This document shows, in pieces, positions 8,969 to 36,404 of a stretch of DNA of 36,404 bases. This DNA is from a virus. Lineage: Duplodnaviria; Heunggongvirae; Uroviricota; Caudoviricetes. The DNA is taken from positions 1 through 36,404 of IMG/VR virus record IMGVR_UViG_2923344815_000003; one strand, written 5' to 3'. How positions within the stretch are numbered: the stretch's first letter is position 1; each line of letters begins with the position of its first letter. Made by a program: the position numbers and the translations under genes. The notes below the pieces were generated by a model that saw only the letters and a list, made by a program, of their open reading frames with translations, had not been told where the DNA came from and searched no databases.

Positions 8969-8993
8969 ACCGCTAATGGCCAGATTAGCGGTT
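8969..8993. terminator. bidirectional terminator between convergent U and invertase genes
   Basis: accgctaat / attagcggt stem, T-tracts on both strands. Confidence 0.5.
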
Positions 8994-9575
8994 ATTTTGT
9001 TTACTCTTCTCAATTGTTCCGCTTGATTCTCCTGCGGGGTGGTAACGATAAATCGTCGATGTACCAATGCCGTAAATTATTGCCAGTTGTTTTCTGTCGT
9101 GCCCGTTTTTAATCAGCCTTGCTATTTGCTCATTCTGTTCTATTGTCAGCTTCGGGCGACGTCCGCCTGTGCGTCCTTGTGCGCGTGCTGCTGCCAGACC
9201 GGCCAGTGTACGCTCTACAATTAATTCACGTTCCATTTCAGCCAGGGCACCCATCACGTGGAAGAAAAAACGCCCCATTGGAGAAGATGTATCTATGCTG
9301 TCGGTCAGACTGCGAAAATTAATCCCTCGCTCCCGTAGTTCCCCGACGAGAGAAATCAGATGTTTCATGCTTCGCCCGAGGCGATCCAGTTTCCAGACAA
9401 CCAGCGTGTCACCTTGTTGAAGGCGCTTTAAAGCGCGTTTTAATCCCGGTCGGTCTGTCTTTGTCCCGCTTAATTTATCTTCAAATATTTGTTCACATCC
9501 TGCACAAACAAGAGCGTTTCGTTGCAGGTCTGTATTCTGGTCATTTGTTGATACCCTTACATAGCCAATCAGCAC
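8985..9575 (-). CDS. Gin/Cin/Pin/Hin-family serine DNA invertase
   Basis: VLIGYVRVSTNDQNTDLQRNAL... catalytic Ser region, C-terminal HTH; near-identical in its N-terminal two-thirds to Mu Gin as I recall it; GTG start at 9575 with GGGAGA RBS (track ORF starts 9593). Confidence 0.9.
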   Translation of the reverse strand: MLIGYVRVSTNDQNTDLQRNALVCAGCEQIFEDKLSGTKTDRPGLKRALKRLQQGDTLVVWKLDRLGRSMKHLISLVGELRERGINFRSLTDSIDTSSPMGRFFFHVMGALAEMERELIVERTLAGLAAARAQGRTGGRRPKLTIEQNEQIARLIKNGHDRKQLAIIYGIGTSTIYRYHPAGESSGTIEKSKQNNR

Positions 9576-9629
9576 ACTGAATCTCCCGTCCAAAAGCGCA
9601 AATCATGCCATGCAGGCCAGAAACGGCCA

Positions 9630-9655
9630 TTATCTAAAACCTCGGTTTACAGGAA
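9630..9655. other. gix/cix-like recombination site (left)
   Basis: ttatctaaaacc-tc-ggtttacaggaa: 12-2-12 dyad matching the Gin/Cin crossover-site consensus as I recall it. Confidence 0.7.
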
Positions 9656-9711
9656 ACGGTAAATCAGGCTTCTGGCGCATTACAGAAAAAACAGAACGGC
9701 GCAGATATTCC
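9642..9711. repeat. left arm of 70-bp perfect inverted repeat bounding the invertible tail-fibre segment
   Basis: Reverse complement of 12621-12690 is identical base for base (checked by hand). Confidence 0.8.
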
Positions 9712-10636
9712 CGATAAAAAACTATTCCTGCGTAATATCGGCACAACAAATTCAACAACCATGTCTTTTAGTGGTGGTGCTGGATGGTTCAAACTGGCAA
9801 CTGTAACAATGCCACAAGCCAGTTCCGTGATTTACATAAGCCTGATTGGTGGCGCAGGGTATAACGTTGGCTCCTCGCATCAAGCAGGCATCTCTGAGCT
9901 GGTTCTGCGTGCCGGAAATGGGAATCCAAAAGGTATTACTGGTGCATTATGGCGACGGACATCGGTTGGATTTACTAATTTTGCATGGGTGAATACATCC
10001 GGTAATACCTATGATGTTTATGTTGAAATAGGTAATTACGCCACAGGTGTTAATATTCAGTGGGATTATACCAGTAACGCCAGCGTAACGATTCATACAT
10101 CACCAACTTATACAGCGAATAAACCAACAGGCCTGACAGATGGAACTGTATATGTAATTTACAGTTCGCACATTAAACCGACTGCTGCTGAGGTTGGGGC
10201 GTTGTCATTATCTGGCGGTCAATTGAATGGTGCACTGGGCATCGGAACATCCAGTGCTCTTGGTGGTAACTCGATTGTTTTGGGTGATAATGACACGGGA
10301 TTTAAACAAAATGGCGACGGGTATCTGGATGTTTATGCGAATAACGTCCATGTTATGCGCTTTGTCTCCGGCAGCATTCAAAGTAATAAAACCATAAATA
10401 TTACAGGGCGTGTTAACCCCTCGGATTACGGTAACTTTGATTCCCGTTATGTGAAAGATGTTCGCCTGGGTACGCGTGTTGTTCAATTGATGGCGCGTGG
10501 TGGTCGTTATGAAAAAGCCGGACACGCAATTACCGGATTAAGAATCATTGGTGAAGTAGATGGCGATGATGAAGCCATCTTCAGACCAATACAAAAATAC
10601 ATCAATGGCACATGGTATAACGTCGCACAGGTGTAA
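9644..10636 (+). CDS. alternative tail-fibre C-terminal exon (silent in this orientation)
   Basis: Reading frame open from the crossover site; first 23 codons (LGLQETVNQASGALQKKQNGADIP) identical to the corresponding stretch of H; C-terminus ...INGTWYNVAQV resembles the H C-terminus; track ORF 9761-10636 is the Met-initiated part. Confidence 0.75.
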   Translation, partial: GLQETVNQASGALQKKQNGADIPDKKLFLRNIGTTNSTTMSFSGGAGWFKLATVTMPQASSVIYISLIGGAGYNVGSSHQAGISELVLRAGNGNPKGITGALWRRTSVGFTNFAWVNTSGNTYDVYVEIGNYATGVNIQWDYTSNASVTIHTSPTYTANKPTGLTDGTVYVIYSSHIKPTAAEVGALSLSGGQLNGALGIGTSSALGGNSIVLGDNDTGFKQNGDGYLDVYANNVHVMRFVSGSIQSNKTINITGRVNPSDYGNFDSRYVKDVRLGTRVVQLMARGGRYEKAGHAITGLRIIGEVDGDDEAIFRPIQKYINGTWYNVAQV

Positions 10637-10639
10637 ATT

Positions 10640-11167
10640 ATGCAGCATTTAAAAAATATTAAGTCAGGAAATCCAAAAACAAAAGAGCAATATCAGCTAA
10701 CAAAGAATTTTGATGTTATCTGGTTATATACAGAAGACGGTAAAAACTGGTATGAGGAAGTAAATAACTTTCAGGACGACACCATAAAGATTGTATACGA
10801 CGAAAATAATATTATTGTCGCCATCACCAAAGATGCCTCCACGCTTAACCCTGAAGGTTTTAGCGTTGTCGAGGTTCCTGATATTACCGCCAACCGACGT
10901 GCTGATGACTCAGGTAAATGGATGTTTAAGGATGGTGCTGTGATTAAGCGGATTTATACGGCTGACGAACAGCAACAACAGGCCGAATCACAAAAGGCCG
11001 CGTTGATTTCTGAAGCTGAAAGCGTTATTCAGCCACTGGAACGCGCTGTCAGGCTGAATATGGCGACGGATGAAGAGCGTAGCCGACTGGAAGCATGGGA
11101 ACGCTACAGTGTTATGGTCAGCCGTGTGGATACGGCAAAGCCCGAATGGCCACAAAAGCCTGAGTAA
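10640..11167 (+). CDS. alternative tail-fibre assembly chaperone (silent partner)
   Basis: 175 aa, N-terminus [22 protein letters not shown] nearly identical to the convergent chaperone at 11196-11729. Confidence 0.8.
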
Positions 11168-11172
11168 AAATT

Positions 11173-11192
11173 AAGGCCCGATATCGGGCCTT
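11173..11192. terminator. palindromic hairpin between convergent assembly-chaperone genes
   Basis: aaggcccgat / atcgggcctt perfect palindrome. Confidence 0.45.
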
Positions 11193-11195
11193 CTC

Positions 11196-11729
11196 TCATT
11201 CTGGTTGTTCGGGAAACGTTACTGGCAAGCTGGAAGTGTCTGTAGATTCGACTTTCTGCGCAAAGAGCATCCACTCTGTTAATTTTTGTTTATTCTCGTC
11301 GGAAATGATGCCCAGCCGTAGCTGTGAGTCCCATAGCTGGGTTTTATCCCTGACGAGCTGTAGCAGGCTTTGCTTTTCATTTTCCGCCTGCTGCCTCTGC
11401 TCTTCCTCGGTATAAGTTCGCCTTACCACTACGCCATCTTTGAACATCCATTTACCCGAAATATCAGCCCGGCGATTTGCTGTAATATCAGGAACCTCAA
11501 CGACGCTTGCGCCTTCTGGATTAATTGCTGAAACATCCTTTTCAATACAAATAATAACGCCGTTACGGTCATAGACCATTTTCAACGTATCAGGCTGAAA
11601 GTTCTTTTGTTCCTCATACCAGTTTTTTCCATCATCTGAATAAAGCCATTTGATGTTAAATTGCTTTGTTAGCTGGTATTGCTCTTTTGTTTTAGGGTTG
11701 CCAGCAGTAATATTTTTTAAGTGCATCAT
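11196..11729 (-). CDS. tail-fibre assembly chaperone (expressed copy)
   Basis: 177 aa, immediately downstream of H on the same strand. Confidence 0.85.
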   Translation of the reverse strand: MMHLKNITAGNPKTKEQYQLTKQFNIKWLYSDDGKNWYEEQKNFQPDTLKMVYDRNGVIICIEKDVSAINPEGASVVEVPDITANRRADISGKWMFKDGVVVRRTYTEEEQRQQAENEKQSLLQLVRDKTQLWDSQLRLGIISDENKQKLTEWMLFAQKVESTDTSSLPVTFPEQPE

Positions 11730-24262: not shown

Positions 24263-25308
24263 TGAGCAGAAAAAATAAAAAAGTGCGCATGAGTTCACGC
24301 ATTGATCTCGCTGATGCGCTCAGGAAAGAATCATCGCTCAGTGCATTCACATTTGATGGTCCTTATCGCCTGACCGGGCATGACCTGCTGGACAATATGT
24401 ACTGTGCTGATAACGGGCGGTGGTATGAAACCCCGGTGGACTGGTACGGTCTGGCAAGAGCCGCCCGGCAAACGTCCTGGCATCAGTCTGCGCTTTACTT
24501 TAAGCGCAATGTATTGCTCGGGTGCTACATCCCGCACCCGCTGCTTTCCCGGCAGGATTTCTCGGCGCTGGCGCTGGACTGGTTTGTGTTCGGTAACGCA
24601 TTCCTTGAGCTTCGGAGCAATATGCTCGGCGAACCGCTTAAATTACGGCACGCCCTGGCGAAATACATGCGACGCGGAAGCGATCTTGAATCATGGTGGT
24701 ATGTGCAGGATGGCAAGGACGCGTTTCAGTTTCGCCCTGGCAAAGTGTGCCACCTGATGAACCCGGATATTAACCAGGAAATCTACGGCATGCCGGAATA
24801 TCTCGGCGCATTACTCTCGGCCAGCCTGTCTCATTCGGCGGACATGTTCAGAAAACTGTATTACGACAACGGATCCCACGCCGGATGCATCATCTACATC
24901 GGTGCAGCGCAGGTAAACCGTGAAAGCATGGACTCCCTGAAAGAAACGCTACAGGGGGCACGTGGTGGTGGTGCGTTTAAAAACGTGCTCATTCATGCGC
25001 CCAACGGGGGCAAAGAGGGGGTGCAAATTTTGCCGTTCCAGCAGATCACCGCAAAAGATGAGTTCATGAATGTTAAGGCGGCGTCCCGTGATGATGTGCT
25101 GGCTGCGCACCGTGTTCCGCCGCAACTGATGGGGGCGATGCCGGGCGAAAAAAGTGCGTTTGGTGATGTGGAGAAGGCCGCGCGGGTTTATGCAATTAAC
25201 GAGCTGATGCCCGTTATGGAGGCCATGAAGCACATCAATGACTGGCTTGGCGAAGAGGTGATCCGCTTTAACCCTTACGCACTGTTAGACACCCCGCCCA
25301 CATCCTGA
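24262..25308 (+). CDS. Q: portal protein gpQ
   Basis: 348 aa, start overlaps P stop. Confidence 0.9.
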   Translation: MSRKNKKVRMSSRIDLADALRKESSLSAFTFDGPYRLTGHDLLDNMYCADNGRWYETPVDWYGLARAARQTSWHQSALYFKRNVLLGCYIPHPLLSRQDFSALALDWFVFGNAFLELRSNMLGEPLKLRHALAKYMRRGSDLESWWYVQDGKDAFQFRPGKVCHLMNPDINQEIYGMPEYLGALLSASLSHSADMFRKLYYDNGSHAGCIIYIGAAQVNRESMDSLKETLQGARGGGAFKNVLIHAPNGGKEGVQILPFQQITAKDEFMNVKAASRDDVLAAHRVPPQLMGAMPGEKSAFGDVEKAARVYAINELMPVMEAMKHINDWLGEEVIRFNPYALLDTPPTS

Positions 25309-25760
25309 CGCGCTTCGCTTGTCTGCTGCTTCGCCGGGGCATAAAAAATTTATGCCCCGACTCTCCAGCTCCTGTATCAATCAGATAATTTCACGACGCC
25401 TTCCAGCTTATTGCCATCATCGGCGGTCAGGTTCTTACGCAATCCCATCGCGCTGACTGCATGTTCTCGCCGCCTCAGTGCGATTTTGACGGCCTTATCT
25501 GCCACCCCATCAAATCAAAAGCCCTCACGTCTTTTTCACGCTCAGCGTGAGAAAGACAGCCATTCTGTTGTATCTCTGCGACATCGTTCAGGGAATGCTA
25601 TTTACCCCCTGAAACGCGGGCTGTTCCCCCGTCACCTGCGCGTAGAAAAAACGCGTTTTTTGTGCACGTACGGATCCTTGACGGATCCAGCCGCCACGCG
25701 GGCCGGAAGTACAAAAAGTCGTTCAAAAAAATTGTGCAAACTTGTGCACTATCGTGCAAA

Positions 25761-25790
25761 CAAAAAAAAGCGCCTTATCGGCGCTTCAAA
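25761..25790 (-). terminator. rho-independent terminator downstream of ORF 25795-26064
   Basis: aagcgcc / ggcgctt stem, T8 tract on the minus strand. Confidence 0.55.
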
Positions 25791-25794
25791 AATA

Positions 25795-26064
25795 TCAATT
25801 GTTGCTGTGTATTAATCGCCAACCACGAACATATGCTTCATAAGCATCTCTGTGCCTTACAGTTCCAGCCTGGCTAAACGGAATGTTAGCTAAAACTAAA
25901 TCATTCTGAGCCATAGCGCGTCCTTCAAGCGCATCTTTTATGCCTAGCTCAAAAGCACAGGCAGCGCATTTGTGCCGACCTTCTTGTCCTTGATATTCAG
26001 GGAGAGACAGAAATGTTGGGTTATAACGATGAGGGTTCTTGCAAATACCTGTTTTAGCCCGCAC
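25795..26064 (-). CDS. hypothetical protein (Cys-containing), cos-proximal accessory locus
   Basis: 89-aa ORF with GTG start and GAGG RBS, or a 39-aa product from Met 25914 with GAAGGA RBS; own terminator downstream. Confidence 0.4.
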   Translation of the reverse strand: MRAKTGICKNPHRYNPTFLSLPEYQGQEGRHKCAACAFELGIKDALEGRAMAQNDLVLANIPFSQAGTVRHRDAYEAYVRGWRLIHSNN

Positions 26065-26087
26065 TTTATTTACCTCATAGGAAAAAT

Positions 26088-26174
26088 ATGCGTGCCTTTA
26101 CAGAGGTGCGTGTAAGCAATAAAATATACGACGCACATTTTGATTTACTTCGGAAGGCACGCATATCAGGTTAA
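26088..26174 (+). CDS. candidate 28-aa small ORF enclosed by a 13-bp inverted repeat
   Basis: AGGAAAAAT RBS then ATG; MRAFTEVRVSNKIYDAHFDLLRKARISG; arms atatgcgtgcctt (26086-26098) and aaggcacgcatat (26154-26166); could instead be a non-coding RNA. Confidence 0.3.
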   Translation: MRAFTEVRVSNKIYDAHFDLLRKARISG

Positions 26175-26195
26175 GTGAGTCCGACCGAGTTCTAC

Positions 26196-26229
26196 GCCCC
26201 AATAGTTGCTGCTATTGGGGCGTTTTGCA
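26196..26229 (+). terminator. rho-independent terminator (plus strand)
   Basis: gccccaatag / ctattggggc stem, then gttttg. Confidence 0.5.
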
Positions 26230-26428
26230 TGGACAATGCCGCGCAATTATCTTGTCGCTCACAATGCGAACGATCTTACAAAAAGGCACATTACTGTCAA
26301 GATAATTGATCGTTTTAATCGATAGATAATAGACAATCTATTTGTTTAACAGATCGATTATTGAAGTAAGTGCGCCAAATGGAATGATACTGTTTCTATA
26401 AATGTGAGCATTTTTCGCGCAGATGCTT

Positions 26429-26740
26429 TTACTCAGGAAATAACGCCCGGATATTCCCAGCCATCTGGCTGGTTATCTTAGCCACTGGTGCAGACTGTGC
26501 TTCAAACTTTTTTGAGCTGATTTGTGTCACAGGTAACATCTCATCATCAGCCCATGCGGCCAGTCGGTAAGCCTCTGCCGGATTCGTCTTCAGAAGTGCC
26601 AGCCCGGCCAGAAAAGCCACGCGTTGGCCGCTTTTGCGGGCTTCTGGTGTAAGGCTGTCCAGCCAGGCGCATGCTTCTCCTTCGTTCTTGACGGCAGCTG
26701 GCTTCAGATAGAAACTTATTCTTCTGGTTGGTGTCGTCAT
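26429..26740 (-). CDS. parR: ParR-like centromere-binding adaptor
   Basis: 103 aa directly downstream of the ParM-like gene; ISFYLKP...WLDSL...AFLAGLAL resembles the ParR N-terminal region as I recall it. Confidence 0.65.
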   Translation of the reverse strand: MTTPTRRISFYLKPAAVKNEGEACAWLDSLTPEARKSGQRVAFLAGLALLKTNPAEAYRLAAWADDEMLPVTQISSKKFEAQSAPVAKITSQMAGNIRALFPE

Positions 26741-26744
26741 TGGT

Positions 26745-27704
26745 TTACTCCTTGTTCATTGCGTACAGCCCATTAACCAGAGCAAAATGTGGCACCCCGT
26801 CCGTGATGAAAGTCGCATTAACTCCGCAGGCTTCGCGGATAGCGGGTGCCACAATCTCCGCCCCTCCACCGACAACCATCACCCGCCCGTAACCGGAAAA
26901 ACCCGCCAGCGCGCGGATCACTCGTTGTTTCAGTGTCTCCTCCTTTTCACGAATAACCGCCATCAGGCTGTTGTAATGCGCGTCATTGTGAATGTGCTGG
27001 CGCAGCCAGGCTTCATCGTGACGGTGCTCAATAATGGTATTGGCGATGTGGTGACTGGTACGCATACCGTTAGTGGCCATCACCGACAGCACGGCATCAG
27101 CCATCAGGGAAACGCCTACGTGTGGATCGCAAAACACCTGGCTGATACCTGCCAGCTGCCCCTGAACCTTTGCCACATCCAGCGTGGTTCCGCCCAAATC
27201 CACAATCAGCAGGGATTCAAACGGACTCATGTCAGCCAGTGCCTTAAAGCCAGCCGGAATGGATTCAGGCATAACCCGCACGTTACGGATAGTGAATGCT
27301 TCGCCGTTCTGGTACTCCACCGGGCGCATAACGTTCGCTTTTTTGCGGTTGATGTTGGCTATGTCCGGCTGTGCGTTTGTGTCGAAATACTCGCTCAGTG
27401 GCAGGGTGACAACCACATCCACCTCCTGTGGCGTGATGCCTGATTTGACCAGCGCGTGATGAATGGCAATGACATTCACATCACTGTACTGGTATTGCGT
27501 GTCGGTCGTCTGGACAAAGCGATCGCTGACCGGATCAAAACCATAGCGCACGCCATCAAGCATGTAGTTCGCGGGCTGCGTGTCACCGAACGGCGCAGAC
27601 CATTCCGACTTGAAGCTGTTCGGGCTGATGGCGTTGCGGCGTTCGCCGTTCTCAGTCCATGCCAGCTTGATGTTGGTGGAGCCGTCGTCGATACAAATTT
27701 TCAT
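26745..27704 (-). CDS. parM: ParM/StbA-family actin-like segregation ATPase
   Basis: 319 aa; MKICIDDGSTNIKLAW, ISPNSFK, YSDVNV, DLGGTTLDV, VVGGGA actin-fold motifs; close to plasmid R1 ParM along the whole length from memory. Confidence 0.85.
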   Translation of the reverse strand: MKICIDDGSTNIKLAWTENGERRNAISPNSFKSEWSAPFGDTQPANYMLDGVRYGFDPVSDRFVQTTDTQYQYSDVNVIAIHHALVKSGITPQEVDVVVTLPLSEYFDTNAQPDIANINRKKANVMRPVEYQNGEAFTIRNVRVMPESIPAGFKALADMSPFESLLIVDLGGTTLDVAKVQGQLAGISQVFCDPHVGVSLMADAVLSVMATNGMRTSHHIANTIIEHRHDEAWLRQHIHNDAHYNSLMAVIREKEETLKQRVIRALAGFSGYGRVMVVGGGAEIVAPAIREACGVNATFITDGVPHFALVNGLYAMNKE

Positions 27705-27735
27705 GTCGCTTTTCCTTATGTTGATTAATTAATCG

Positions 27736-27773
27736 TTTACGGGATTCTGAAATCCCGTTTTTGCCTGTTTTGT
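27736..27773. repeat. direct repeat copy 1 (39 bp with internal dyad) just upstream of parM
   Basis: tttacgggattctgaaatcccgtttttgcctgttttgtg. Confidence 0.7.
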
Positions 27774-27780
27774 GCGCGCT

Positions 27781-30588
27781 TCATATATCGCTGCGCGTTT
27801 TTTGCTCATTTACGGGATTCGTGAGTCCCGTTTCTGTCTGTTTTTTGTTTCCACTGGTCAGGCCACCCTGCAGCAGGTCTGCTTTGCGGCTGGCGCGTTC
27901 AGTGGTTTCACTGATTCTCTGTGCGTGCTCTGCGTCGCGGATGGCGCGCAGCATGTCAGAAAGCACGGTAACGGGTGTTTTCATGGTGTTCTGATCCTGC
28001 TGAAGTGCGGATGCCAGGCGTGCGGCGGCTTCGGGGTCTGATGCCCCCAGCTGTGCCAGATAGCTGGCGACCGGGTTATGGCGGATCTCCGTGCTGCTTA
28101 CGCCGTGATTACGGCTCAGGTGCTGCCAGAGCTGCGTGATTCGGCTGTCCGGGCGGGTATCCGGTTTGCGTACAATTTCATATCCCTGCGGTGCAATGAT
28201 GCTGCCGTCAACGTACAGGCTGCCGCCCCGTAGCAGGTGCTGCGTCTGCTGTTCACCGATATGCAGGCCGAGAGATTCGGCAGACTCCCGCCATTCTTTA
28301 GCGAGTAATTCGTGGTTATCAGGCAAAGGCCGCTGCTGTTTGCGGCTCTGTGTCCAGCTCTGCATTTCATCACTGCTGTTTTTTGCCTGTTTGTCACGAA
28401 GCGAACGCATCAGCGCCCGGCGTTCGTGCCGTTTCAGTGAGCGCATCCATTCGTTCACTTCAACGCCGTCAGGAAGCTGCGGCCACGGTGCTGGCCGTTC
28501 TTTCGACTGTTCTGTCCCGCTGTTGCCTGTTTCCTGTACACGGGGACAGTTATTGCCACGAGTCCAAGGGGCGGCAGGGCCGCCCTGAAGGTCAAAACCA
28601 TTTTCGCGGGCGCTGTCTTCCGCTTCCGGTTTGCGTCTTACCAGCTTCCAGTTATCCGGATGCGTGCACACACGGGAGGATTCCCCGATGAGTGGTGACC
28701 AGATCCCGTAAATCTGTACGCTCTGTTCGCCGTAATCGTTCAGCTCATCGGCGAGGTCGTAGGCGGTGCGAATCAGGTAGTCTTTGCGTGGAACAAGTAC
28801 GCCGCCCTGTTTCTCTATGTAGGTGGCAAAACATCCTGCATCAGCGGCAGCGAGTACCGCATCCATTGCGTCATCCTTCAGCCGTTGCGGGCCTTCCGGG
28901 TTGCGTGCCATCTGGCTGGCAAGGCGGCGGAGTTCACGCCACACCTGACGGGAGGGGATGCCAAAGAACTGGAACTGGCGGACCCGGTGAAGGCGCGCCC
29001 AGCCGATGGCGCGTTCCACGCTCTCGGCCATTGATTTTCCGGTTTCGTGGTCAACGCGTGGCTTGCCCGTTTTCTGGTCGATGCCATCCACGGCGCGGCT
29101 GTCCAGGTTCTTTCCGATGTAGGTGGCGATGTAGCTGGTTGGTGTGCCTTTTGAGCCGTCTACGTACTCCGCCTTAAAACGCGGAGTTATGTCATCGCCC
29201 AGCTCGTGGCGGTCTTCCTGAATGGCAATATCGCAGACGTGGGACACGATGGTTTCAATCTCGTCCGGATGTGCAAAGACCATCATATGCCAGTGCACGG
29301 TGCCGTCATGGTGAGGCTCCACCGTGCGGATGCCATACCAGCGCAGGCCGTCGCGGTTCAGTTTCTTGCGGACCGCCGCAAAAAACGTGTTAACCAGGTA
29401 ATCGCTGGAGTCGCGCATGGTGGCCCCGTTCCATTTGGGATTCGGATGACCGTTCTCTGTTGTGGCGTGGTATTTTGACGGGCAGGTGACAGTCAGAAAC
29501 ACCGCTTTGTCGCCACGGGCTTCGGCCAGAAGTTCCAGCCCCTTCATGGTGGCCATCATTTCTGCCTTACGGTGAACCGGGTTACTTACTCCCGCGTAAT
29601 ACACTGTCTCGAGATCAATCGTGAACCCGTCTTCGTTTTCCAGCATGAAACTTTTCAGGAAATCGCGTGTTTTCTCGCGCTGTGCGCGAAACTCGCTTAA
29701 CGCGTCCTGGCTCAGATAGGGTGATGTTTTTCTGGAAACCAGACAGGCGGCGCGGAGTTGTTCTTCTCTCCACTCGCAACGTAACAGCCACAATTTGCGT
29801 TTCCACCATTCCGCACAGGTCAGGCGAAGGATTGCGCCCGGTAACAGTTCCGTATCCGGATCGCTCTTGTTCAGGGCTTCGTAATGTGGCGGCATGATGT
29901 GCAGGCGTAATGCGATACGGGCCAGCATCCGGTAAGCCTTCAACATTACATCCATGGTCAGCTCGCCATCTCTGGCACCAAAGCCATCGCAGAGTGTTTC
30001 GAAGGTGCTGCTGAACATCGCCGCCGTCATGGTGGCCAGCGTCTGTATCTGGTGCTTGTTGAGCTGCGGCAGGTAAAGCAAATCGTCCAGGCGTTCGCGC
30101 CCGGCAAGGGAGCGATAACCCGGTGTCAGCCAGCGCCCGTCAGTGCGATCCAGACGTTCGAATATTTTGCGCAGGGTCCCGCGCGCGTAGCGTTCAGCCT
30201 GCTGGTTCTTTTTACCTTTCTGGCGGTCAGATTCCTGTTTTTTGCGCAGGAAGGAGAGGTGGCGAATAAGCGGATCGCGCAGATAGGATGGCAGCAGGCG
30301 CAGCGAGGCCATGGCTTCATCCACCGCGCCGCGTACCTGCTTTCTGGCGTCTCCTGCCAGTGTGATGGTTTTGTCCTGTTTTTCCTGTGCGTCCAGGCTT
30401 TTATTAATCAGGTTGCCCAGCGGCGTGGCGGAGAACGCCGCATCAGCCATTTCCTGGCAGCGCTCGTTCTCTGCCCGGTAGGCATCCAGCCAGGAGGAAA
30501 GCGCGGATTCAGGAGCGGGGATCCCCGTTCCTTCACGCCCCACTGCGTGGCGCGGTTGCTGCCAGTCCCTGATGTACTCTGCCGTCAT
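27781..30588 (-). CDS. A: replication initiation endonuclease gpA (rolling-circle initiator)
   Basis: 935 aa; HxH (VHWHMMVF) and double-tyrosine YIATYIGK motifs. Confidence 0.9.
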   Translation of the reverse strand: MTAEYIRDWQQPRHAVGREGTGIPAPESALSSWLDAYRAENERCQEMADAAFSATPLGNLINKSLDAQEKQDKTITLAGDARKQVRGAVDEAMASLRLLPSYLRDPLIRHLSFLRKKQESDRQKGKKNQQAERYARGTLRKIFERLDRTDGRWLTPGYRSLAGRERLDDLLYLPQLNKHQIQTLATMTAAMFSSTFETLCDGFGARDGELTMDVMLKAYRMLARIALRLHIMPPHYEALNKSDPDTELLPGAILRLTCAEWWKRKLWLLRCEWREEQLRAACLVSRKTSPYLSQDALSEFRAQREKTRDFLKSFMLENEDGFTIDLETVYYAGVSNPVHRKAEMMATMKGLELLAEARGDKAVFLTVTCPSKYHATTENGHPNPKWNGATMRDSSDYLVNTFFAAVRKKLNRDGLRWYGIRTVEPHHDGTVHWHMMVFAHPDEIETIVSHVCDIAIQEDRHELGDDITPRFKAEYVDGSKGTPTSYIATYIGKNLDSRAVDGIDQKTGKPRVDHETGKSMAESVERAIGWARLHRVRQFQFFGIPSRQVWRELRRLASQMARNPEGPQRLKDDAMDAVLAAADAGCFATYIEKQGGVLVPRKDYLIRTAYDLADELNDYGEQSVQIYGIWSPLIGESSRVCTHPDNWKLVRRKPEAEDSARENGFDLQGGPAAPWTRGNNCPRVQETGNSGTEQSKERPAPWPQLPDGVEVNEWMRSLKRHERRALMRSLRDKQAKNSSDEMQSWTQSRKQQRPLPDNHELLAKEWRESAESLGLHIGEQQTQHLLRGGSLYVDGSIIAPQGYEIVRKPDTRPDSRITQLWQHLSRNHGVSSTEIRHNPVASYLAQLGASDPEAAARLASALQQDQNTMKTPVTVLSDMLRAIRDAEHAQRISETTERASRKADLLQGGLTSGNKKQTETGLTNPVNEQKTRSDI
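27809..27847. repeat. direct repeat copy 2, encoding the last 13 codons of gene A
   Basis: tttacgggattcgtgagtcccgtttctgtctgttttttg; minus strand encodes KKQTETGLTNPVN. Confidence 0.7.
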
Positions 30589-35402: not shown

Positions 35403-36404
35403 ATGTCGGTTCGTAAGATTCCATCAGGTAAATGGCTTTGCGAATGTTATCCCTACGGGGCATCGGGAAAACGCATTCGTAAACAGTTTGCGACAAAAAG
35501 TGAGGCGCTCTCTTATGAGCGCCGTTTAATGAATAGTAGAGTTGGAGACGAGTTTCAAGATGGTTCTGGTCCTCGTCTTTCTGAGTTGATTGCTCGTTGG
35601 TTTGAGATGTACGGTAAAACCTTGTCCTCTGGTGCAGAGCGCAAAGTCAAACTTGAGGCGATTTGTTCCAGGCTGGGAGATCCATTTGCTTCGCAGTTTG
35701 ACAAAAATATGTTTGCTACTTATCGGGAAAGAAGGCTATCAGGAGAATGGAATCCCAAGGGGAAGAAAAAACTTAGTGAAGCAACCGTTAATCGCGAGCA
35801 GTCATATCTACATGCTGTTTTTGCCGAACTGAAGCGCCTTGGGGAGTGGTCTGGTGAAAACCCCCTGACTGGTATTCGCAAGTTTCGTGAGGAAGAAAAG
35901 GAACTGGCGTTTCTGTATGTAGATGAGATTGAACGCCTTCTGATTGCGTGTGATGAGTCACGGAATAAAGATTTGGGGGTTGTTGTCCGTATTGGGCTTG
36001 CGACTGGTGCTCGGTGGAGTGAAGCAGAAGGATTAAAGCAATCTCAAGTACTGCCCGGTCGAATCACATTTGTTAAAACTAAAGGAAAGAAGAACCGCAC
36101 TGTACCGATTTCACCTCAATTGCAGGCTATGCTTCCTAAAAAACGAGGAGCGCTATTTTCACCATGTTATGAGGCTTTTGACGCTGCAATTAAGAGAGCG
36201 AAGATCGAGCTTCCTGATGGGCAATTAACTCATGTGCTACGTCACACGTTTGCCAGTCATTTTATGATGCGGGGCGGAAATATTCTTGTGTTGCAAAAAA
36301 TACTGGGGCATAGCGATATAAAAATGACTATGCGTTATGCGCATTTTGCTCCAGGTCATTTAGAGGCTGCTGTTGAATTGAACCCTTTTGACAATAGAGG
36401 GTAA
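35403..36404 (+). CDS. int: tyrosine-type phage integrase
   Basis: 333 aa; C-terminal catalytic region HVLRHTFASH...MRYAHF (R-H-R-Y box); stop codon is the last triplet of the window. Confidence 0.9.
   Translation: MSVRKIPSGKWLCECYPYGASGKRIRKQFATKSEALSYERRLMNSRVGDEFQDGSGPRLSELIARWFEMYGKTLSSGAERKVKLEAICSRLGDPFASQFDKNMFATYRERRLSGEWNPKGKKKLSEATVNREQSYLHAVFAELKRLGEWSGENPLTGIRKFREEEKELAFLYVDEIERLLIACDESRNKDLGVVVRIGLATGARWSEAEGLKQSQVLPGRITFVKTKGKKNRTVPISPQLQAMLPKKRGALFSPCYEAFDAAIKRAKIELPDGQLTHVLRHTFASHFMMRGGNILVLQKILGHSDIKMTMRYAHFAPGHLEAAVELNPFDNRG

Follow-up and report, generated by a model that had tools for sequence, protein, structure and literature searches.

The DNA examined here is the 36,404-nucleotide (nt) virus record IMGVR_UViG_2923344815_000003 of IMG/VR, which is referred to in its whole length as the window. 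It is an integrative P2-like prophage, and in the interval between its replication gene gpA and cos it carries two adjacent genes, parM and parR, that encode an actin-like ATPase and a predicted DNA-binding adaptor. Strong selection has thus preserved a textbook plasmid-segregation machine in a lineage of phages found nearly always integrated. The pair is a genuine type II (ParMRC-type) partition cassette, and we propose, at an even level of confidence, that it acts on extrachromosomal phage circles during gpA replication and not in the maintenance of a plasmid prophage. The integrative P2-like context had been recognized in the original prediction made from this sequence, and it was borne out by the tyrosine integrase match and by a profile scan of the open reading frames (ORFs), in which the window was found to encode a helix-turn-helix (HTH) repressor and Ogr as well. 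The placement of the cassette between gene A and cos, the site of old/tin in P2, was likewise correct.

Identification of ParM and ParR

The upstream gene of the pair encodes a protein of 319 amino acids (aa). Residues 1 to 157 matched the Pfam family StbA_N (PF06406; E = 1.1e-82, 276 bits against a cut-off of 24.6), residues 159 to 316 matched the ParM C-terminal domain (PF21523; E = 2.6e-67, 226 bits against a cut-off of 27.4), and the full-length protein matched PHROG 691, a "partition protein" family. In a sequence search of the Protein Data Bank (PDB), residues 2 to 316 aligned with the R1 ParM structures 1MWK, 4A62 and 5AEY (E of about 4e-93), and identity to the ParM proteins of R1 and its relatives was 46 to 52% in end-to-end alignments that included all nucleotide-binding motifs. 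Four motifs were identical or nearly identical to those of 1MWK, namely, IDDGSTNIKL (phosphate 1), MPESIPAG (catalytic loop), DLGGTTLD (phosphate 2) and (I/V)GGGAE (adenosine). The NCBIfam equivalog for Bacillus-type ParM remained below its threshold (16 bits against 417), as expected because the window protein belongs to a different ParM subfamily. These matches identify the 319-aa protein as a full-length ParM, the actin-like ATPase of type II partition systems, which is predicted to form filaments.

The 103-aa product of the downstream gene matched Plasmid_stab_B (PF10784; E = 9.8e-24, 83.4 bits against a cut-off of 25) and, over its full length, PHROG 2515, again a "partition protein" family. 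When ParR alone was compared with the PDB using phmmer there was no match, and a profile of 19 ParR homologs gave as its top PDB match 2JD3 ("StbB protein"; E = 0.003), with residues 9 to 74 aligned to residues 11 to 75. We take 2JD3 to be the ribbon-helix-helix ParR of plasmid pB171; the match extends over the N-terminal DNA-binding domain at low sequence similarity. A tblastn search of plasmids with ParR returned seven prophage-type records only, ParR being too diverged to reach genuine plasmid ParRs, and plasmid ParRs for comparison were obtained via the ParM hits, from IncI, IncF, pAA, Mangrovibacter and Dickeya loci.

In the resulting alignment, phage and plasmid ParRs had in common an N-terminal strand (RRISFYLKP compared with RTIAFKLNP and RKCSFYIYP), a helix of the pattern ER..R.A...G.AL and a motif at the extreme C terminus, where NIRALFPE of the phage could be aligned with NIKNLFPDDE of the IncI type. 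The C-terminal motif N(I/A)xxLFP(E/D) was invariant among phage alleles and alignable with the ParRs of IncI, pAA and R1-like loci. In the phage protein, the DNA-binding domain at the N terminus is followed by a variable linker, much shorter than that of plasmid ParRs, and by the C-terminal NIRALFPE tail. An AlphaFold model of the monomer was of low confidence (predicted local distance difference test score of 56), with the N terminus modelled as a helix. The family and profile matches identify the 103-aa protein as a ParR/StbB adaptor, with a predicted ribbon-helix-helix fold and a tail predicted to bind ParM. The hidden Markov model and PDB searches supported both names given in the original prediction, ParM/StbA for the 319-aa protein and ParR-like for its neighbor, and the matches exclude the alternative that the former belongs to another actin-fold family, such as a sugar kinase or Hsp70, without a ParR partner.

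The closest known relatives are R1 ParMRC (the parA/stb locus) and the IncF and IncI systems related to it. They share with the phage cassette the order parM then parR, and their ParR belongs to the same Pfam family and has an equivalent N-terminal strand and C-terminal tail. Unlike these plasmid systems, the cassette belongs to a phage that integrates and follows the gene of a rolling-circle initiator, and its ParR has 103 aa instead of 117 to 140 aa through loss of linker sequence. The phage proteins also form a clade of their own.

Distribution, selection and origin of the cassette

Of 5426 complete E. coli genomes, 1302 (about 24%) carried the module at an identity of at least 90%, with up to three copies per genome, a frequency at odds with the earlier view that a partition system is unexpected beside an integrase. 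We also found it in the phages P88, 520873, 503458, PhiR44_2 and Chuche and in Citrobacter phage phiSM (genus Xuanwuvirus), and a Salmonella prophage with sopE has it as well. One ParM locus of 96% identity is on a contig labelled Vagococcus sp. WN89Y, a Gram-positive genus, most likely owing to assembly contamination or mislabelling. The genes have not gone unnoticed: hundreds of genomes annotated by the Prokaryotic Genome Annotation Pipeline (PGAP) list them as "plasmid segregation protein ParM" and as "plasmid partitioning/stability family protein", PHROGs families exist for both proteins, and the supplementary tables of Rousset et al. list the StbA plus Plasmid_stab_B arrangement hundreds of times. 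Magaziner et al. also belong to the earlier literature on the subject. A search of the accessible literature for an experimental test of the function of the cassette found none. Both the feature and the episome hypothesis are therefore already known, and the window adds no new kind of system; new here are the phage clade, with its gene order preserved in distant P2-like phages of five further genera, the selection values, the candidate centromere, the chromosomal counts and the lack of a plasmid-type replicon.

Selection was assessed on 83 loci from IMG/VR and GTDB. All 83 copies of parM and all 80 scorable copies of parR were intact. The ratio of nonsynonymous to synonymous substitution rates (dN/dS) was 0.058 for parM, and in parR it was 0.13 for the N-terminal domain, 0.43 to 0.47 for the linker and 0.05 for the C-terminal tail, the pattern that a functional adaptor should show if its linker is disordered. 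These values indicate that parM and parR are under strong purifying selection.

We also observed that ParR was polymorphic beside a ParM that was 97 to 99% identical between copies. The 80 copies comprised 46 protein variants, falling into allele groups of about 98%, 84% and 55% identity, and the switch in similarity started about 18 to 20 codons into parR. The position of this switch suggests recombination in which most of parR is exchanged along with the downstream cargo. All alleles shared the N-terminal 20 residues and the palindromes upstream of the cassette.

Related loci recovered from the viral and GTDB collections were all 96 to 100% identical, without comparative power, and divergent phage loci were taken from the protein database instead. 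Over 72,556 plasmids, ParM identity was bimodal: six prophage-type records were 95 to 99% identical to the window protein, and genuine plasmids reached at most 52%. Intermediates (54 to 63%) in a collection of 5.8 billion proteins came from Plesiomonas, Hafnia, Serratia and Enterobacter only, and the four that we examined all lay in P2-like prophages, in the order gpA, zero to two small ORFs, parM, parR, variable cargo, (ogr), portal and terminase. The identity of these phages to the window was 30 to 47% for the portal, 36% for the terminase and 30 to 55% for gpA. Two chromosomal ParM homologs of about 50% identity were located in an integrated plasmid-like region and in an integrative and conjugative element (ICE), respectively. 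In a distance-based neighbor-joining tree with 30 bootstraps, the phage ParMs formed a clade apart from those of plasmids and ICEs, and an inner clade of E. coli, Plesiomonas and Hafnia was recovered in 30 of 30 replicates. Because synteny is kept, the phage ParMs form their own clade and there is no close plasmid donor, the cassette appears to be an old, lineage-specific part of P2-like phages and not a recent plasmid capture. The lineage in question is that of the P88-like Xuanwuvirus phages together with more distant relatives.

These data bear on the suggestion, made in the original prediction, that the cassette is remnant cargo, a plasmid cassette captured once and not yet lost that would be functionless or a selfish hitch-hiker. 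Its position in a region of accessory cargo and its persistence beside a gpA disrupted by an insertion sequence (IS) in O111 strains would fit such a history, but a remnant would hardly be intact in every scorable copy, show a parM dN/dS as low as the one observed and display domain-specific constraint in ParR. Nor does it agree with synteny kept between phages with such divergent portals, or with a ParM clade that has no close plasmid donor. We regard the remnant reading as strongly disfavored by the sequence comparisons and as very improbable. In these strains, as in the chromosome of O111:H- strain 11128, the prophage is defective, with gpA interrupted by IS1203 and a truncated integrase, but the cassette survives in it, both of its genes being intact and 99.9% identical to those of the window.

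Repeats upstream of parM and the surrounding locus

The gap between gpA and parM measures 76 bp, the two genes are co-oriented on the minus strand, and parR begins right past the parM stop codon with a spacing of 4 nt (Table 1). Upstream of parM we found two copies, 73 bp apart, of a 42-nt repeat, each centered on an 18-bp palindrome with the population consensus CGGGATT-N4-AATCCCG. Allowing zero to one mismatch, the motif occurred at these two sites only in the 36-kb window. The proximal palindrome overlaps the -35 position of a putative promoter whose -10-like element would be ATTAATCAA, and as in R1 ParMRC a cis element thus lies upstream of parM and overlaps the presumed promoter.

Table 1. 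Positions of the cassette, its upstream elements and selected phage genes in the window
Feature	Position	Strand	Location	Remarks
parR	26429-26740	-		103 aa, ribbon-helix-helix-type adaptor (predicted); PF10784 match
parM	26745-27704	-		319 aa, actin-like segregation ATPase; Pfam and PDB matches
AAGGAA, ribosome-binding site of parM	27712-27717	-		Read from the sequence
ATTAATCAA, -10-like	27721-27729	-		Read from the sequence; promoter role putative
Proximal 18-bp palindrome, CGGGATT-N4-AATCCCG	27740-27757		gpA-parM gap	Core of repeat unit 27733-27774
Distal 18-bp palindrome, 1 mismatch	27813-27830		Inside last gpA codons	Core of repeat unit 27806-27847
gpA, rolling-circle replication initiator	27781-30588	-		935 aa; PF05840, E = 9e-129
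Tyrosine integrase	35403-36404			Window ORF match

The P2-like prophages of Plesiomonas and Hafnia have two GGGA...(T)CCC palindromes 72 to 73 bp apart at the same distance from parM, and ATTAATCAA followed by an AAGGAA ribosome-binding site is found in these loci too. The distal copy lies there within ORFs that are non-homologous to the E. coli gpA tail, suggesting that the element travels with parM and not with gpA. The Serratia and Enterobacter phages instead have a single large inverted repeat upstream of parM. The form of the element covaried with the N-terminal strand of ParR, which reads TRR(I/V)SFYL in phages with GGGA..TCCC palindromes and NRKISFYL in those with the large inverted repeat. 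In the same analysis the R1-like, Mangrovibacter and Dickeya loci had obvious arrays of short direct iterons upstream of parM, whereas no R1-type parC iteron array was present upstream of phage parM: R1 has two blocks of five 11-bp direct iterons, and the phage has two 18-bp palindromes, located partly in gpA. What the phage locus has in common with parC in general is an upstream repeat whose position is conserved among relatives and that covaries with ParR. We infer from this pattern that the palindrome pair is a candidate ParR operator and minimal centromere.

Two other explanations of the repeats were considered and rejected. As transcription terminators, the upstream hairpins would face the wrong way, being terminator-like only in antisense in E. 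coli, and in Plesiomonas and Hafnia the T-run is not kept although palindrome and spacing are. In the terminator scan, terminator-like hairpins in the gpA-parM gap were on the plus strand (antisense) only, and no sense-strand terminator was found between gpA and parM. A coding or origin feature of gpA was rejected as the main explanation of the distal palindrome: Hafnia orf167 and the gpA C-terminal tails are non-homologous, yet the element is equidistant from parM. The distal palindrome overlaps the last 15 or so codons of E. coli gpA, and the 42-nt repeat gives the intergenic copy the look of a duplicated gpA 3' end (window region 27781-28300). The gpA protein itself, which also matched PHROG 91 ("nicking at origin of replication"), is 935 aa long in the window and 785 to 907 aa in other lineages, with C-terminal tails that are non-homologous between lineages.

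On the 3' side of parR lies a variable low-GC stretch of about 1.1 kb with a single 89-aa ORF, beyond which are the divergently oriented portal and terminase genes. The ORF (25795-26064, minus strand) had PHROG 3941, a family of unknown function, as its sole match. The interval from parR to cos contains, on the minus strand, a promoter close to consensus (TTGACA-16-TAAGAT, 26300-26273), followed by a stretch of about 150 nt with unusually stable folding (z = -3.3) that includes a perfect 12-bp hairpin at 26194-26223. An Rfam scan of 25300-28000 gave no meaningful match. The segment 25795-26300 is where the gpA-to-portal hotspot of P2 holds its variable cargo, and it could encode a moron or defense candidate preceded by a long structured leader, or else a small RNA. 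Elsewhere in the window, the low-GC stretch 8985-11729 encodes a serine invertase (Resolvase plus HTH_7; 8985-9593, minus strand), a 291-aa ORF without assignment and two tail-fiber assembly genes in opposite orientations, an arrangement resembling the invertible segments that determine host range in Mu (G) and P1 (C).

Integrated state and proposed role of the cassette

Complete E. coli genomes contained 1450 places of the module, of which 1448 were chromosomal and 2 were on plasmid records, a ratio that argues against a usual plasmid lifestyle. With the junction of a circular record as the query, a contiguous phage attachment site (attP) was found in 0 of the 441 complete genomes with that attachment (att) type, all of which were split at the att core; a circular record linearized at the junction would look split too. 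No plasmid-type Rep was found in the scanned early-region ORFs, which comprised all but three small ones of 81 to 99 aa, or in PGAP-annotated relatives, and the sole replicon found was gpA. The marks of a phage-plasmid, namely, an autonomous replicon in lysogens and a plasmid-type initiator or copy control, were accordingly not observed. P88 and phiSM are integrated prophages that have been reported to be inducible or spontaneously active.

We also inspected the plasmid records themselves. NZ_CP148288.1 (pZ1323PEC0009-2) is a complete P88-like phage of 34,461 bp that was deposited as a circular E. coli plasmid and carries the integrase, Cox, the repressor and all virion genes. Because it begins only about 18 bp away from the att core, the record is probably an excised or induced phage genome that was assembled separately and not a plasmid, and it constitutes weak evidence. 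Three of the other hits among the seven PLSDB records are 0.4 to 1.4 Mb in size. A Shigella "plasmid" of 26.8 kb was rejected as an episome, being a linear, IS-ridden fragment, and so was the Salmonella "plasmid" pS2122_1, in which chromosomal genes flank the sopE prophage. In this 272-kb IncHI2 record the sopE P2-like prophage with the cassette occupies 99 to 141 kb and lies by pheA, tyrA, aroF, rplS, trmD and ffh; the record represents either a large chromosomal segment captured on a plasmid or a misassembly.

These observations have to be set against the possibility that the phage is a facultative plasmid prophage, which would persist as a stable low-copy episome, for example where attB is absent or occupied, and alternate with integration. 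The episomal state offered as one option in the original prediction is an idea already in print for such phages (Rousset 2022; Pfeifer 2021), and it would account for a complete ParM/ParR pair of the plasmid-partition type and for the deposition of a whole P88-like phage, integrase included, as a circular plasmid. That P2-like phages can be plasmid prophages is shown by Burkholderia phage KS14 (PMC3091744), which lysogenizes as a plasmid, as demonstrated experimentally, and which likewise combines P2-type structural genes with a partition function. However, KS14 encodes RepB and a type I ParA, has no gpA and is not found integrated, whereas the window phage has gpA and a tyrosine integrase, is found integrated and shows neither a plasmid Rep nor visible copy control. 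The chromosomal counts, the split att sites and the origin of the remaining "plasmid" hits speak against a stable episome as well, and the circular record starts where an excised prophage assembled apart would start. In addition, the palindromes were the same in all E. coli-clade phage relatives compared, and a genome can hold up to three copies of the module; if co-resident copies share the palindromes, which is likely, they would be partition-incompatible as episomes. While the idea itself stands in the literature, chromosomal location and the lack of a plasmid-type replicon thus disfavor a stable episome, and we consider the facultative plasmid prophage an unlikely, if serious, alternative.

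We instead favor action on circles that are only transiently extrachromosomal. ParR dimers would bind the two CGGGATT-N4-AATCCCG palindromes upstream of parM, and the proximal site would probably also autoregulate a weak parM promoter. Through its conserved C-terminal tail, ParR would capture the ends of ATP-ParM filaments, and growing filaments would push ParR-bound phage DNA molecules apart. Activity would be confined to the extrachromosomal circle with the early gpA operon on, that is, after infection or excision, when the cassette would position or separate replicating monomeric circles. Action on excised or infecting circles only is suggested because the prophage is nearly always integrated and gpA, its sole replicon, lies directly upstream; coupling to replication is suggested because parM follows gpA at 76 bp on the same strand with no sense terminator in between. 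Co-transcription of parM with gpA, binding of ParR to the palindromes, and the timing and purpose of the activity are all presumptive.

In P2, replication is of the rolling-circle type and is initiated by gpA at an origin within gene A, and monomeric circles are packaged. Together these features would place the candidate centromere beside the origin and offer a natural substrate to a pairwise pushing machine. In its most specific form, our proposal is that the cassette may not serve plasmid maintenance at all and may be an actin spindle particular to this phage lineage, switched on with replication and having by the gpA origin region a minimal centromere of two sites, that either separates or positions monomeric circles or guards not-yet-integrated genomes from loss at division. 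This version is tentative, and we hold it with distinctly less than even confidence.

Several points weigh against action on transient circles. The circular record NZ_CP148288.1 is compatible with some episomal existence. The whole 16-member phage clade of ParM was only moderately supported (17 of 30 bootstraps), and genomic context covers four intermediate homologs. The covariation of ParR strand and DNA motif involves no more than two groups, with phylogeny as a confounder. Among the close relatives that make up the E. coli population, the palindromes were no better conserved than their flanks, and a scan for consensus promoters upstream of parM called none. Finally, there are two sites compared with about ten iterons in an R1-type parC, and the element may be merely an operator.

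An integrated prophage can use an actin-adaptor pair on excised circles, as AlpAC shows in prophage CGP3 of Corynebacterium glutamicum (PMC4446434). There, the actin-like protein AlpC and the DNA-binding adaptor AlpA, which binds repeats (alpS) upstream of its own operon, are encoded in an integrated prophage, are induced early, act on excised circular phage DNA and are needed for efficient phage replication. AlpC/AlpA would be the best functional analogue of the role proposed here, the presumed likeness being functional and architectural. Unlike in CGP3, ParM/ParR loci place the motor gene upstream of the adaptor gene, the CGP3 host is Gram positive, and AlpC filaments, unlike those of ParM, did not show dynamic instability (PMC4446434). 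Other temperate phages with active partition systems, namely, P1, N15, SSU5 and c-st with its TubZ/TubR, differ in that they are obligately extrachromosomal, have plasmid replicons and, according to published accounts, use type I or tubulin-type systems, while the window element is integrative and its system is of the actin type.

A role outside phage DNA segregation was also weighed. The cassette borders the interval between gpA and the portal gene, which has been described as a hotspot for anti-phage systems (Rousset 2022). Prophage ParR or ParM might cross-react with partition systems brought in by plasmids or belonging to related phages, through partition incompatibility or filament poisoning, to the competitive benefit of the lysogen or prophage, as is the case for neighboring hotspot cargo. 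The resemblance of the ParR tail to that of the IncI type and the high polymorphism of the ParR linker and helices would suit such interference or exclusion. On the other hand, PADLOC defense models gave no match to ParM, ParR, gpA or the 89-aa neighbor, and, unlike the adjoining cargo with its rapid turnover, the pair keeps its position in distant phages and is subject to strong purifying selection. Moreover, no plasmid ParM exceeds 52% identity to the phage ParM, and the DNA-contacting strand of ParR and the palindromes are unlike the iterons of the plasmids examined. Interference therefore seems improbable to us.

P88 and phiSM can be cultured and induced, and the role of the cassette is thus directly testable. 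If the proposal of a spindle acting on replicating circles is true, no earlier case of actin-driven DNA positioning would be known from a phage that integrates into Gram-negative bacteria, and the system would occur in roughly a quarter of the P2-like prophages of E. coli. The answer would tell whether actin-type segregation serves phage replication or the establishment of lysogeny in enterobacteria, as AlpAC does in Corynebacterium, and it would also tell whether P2-like phages have a hidden episomal phase.

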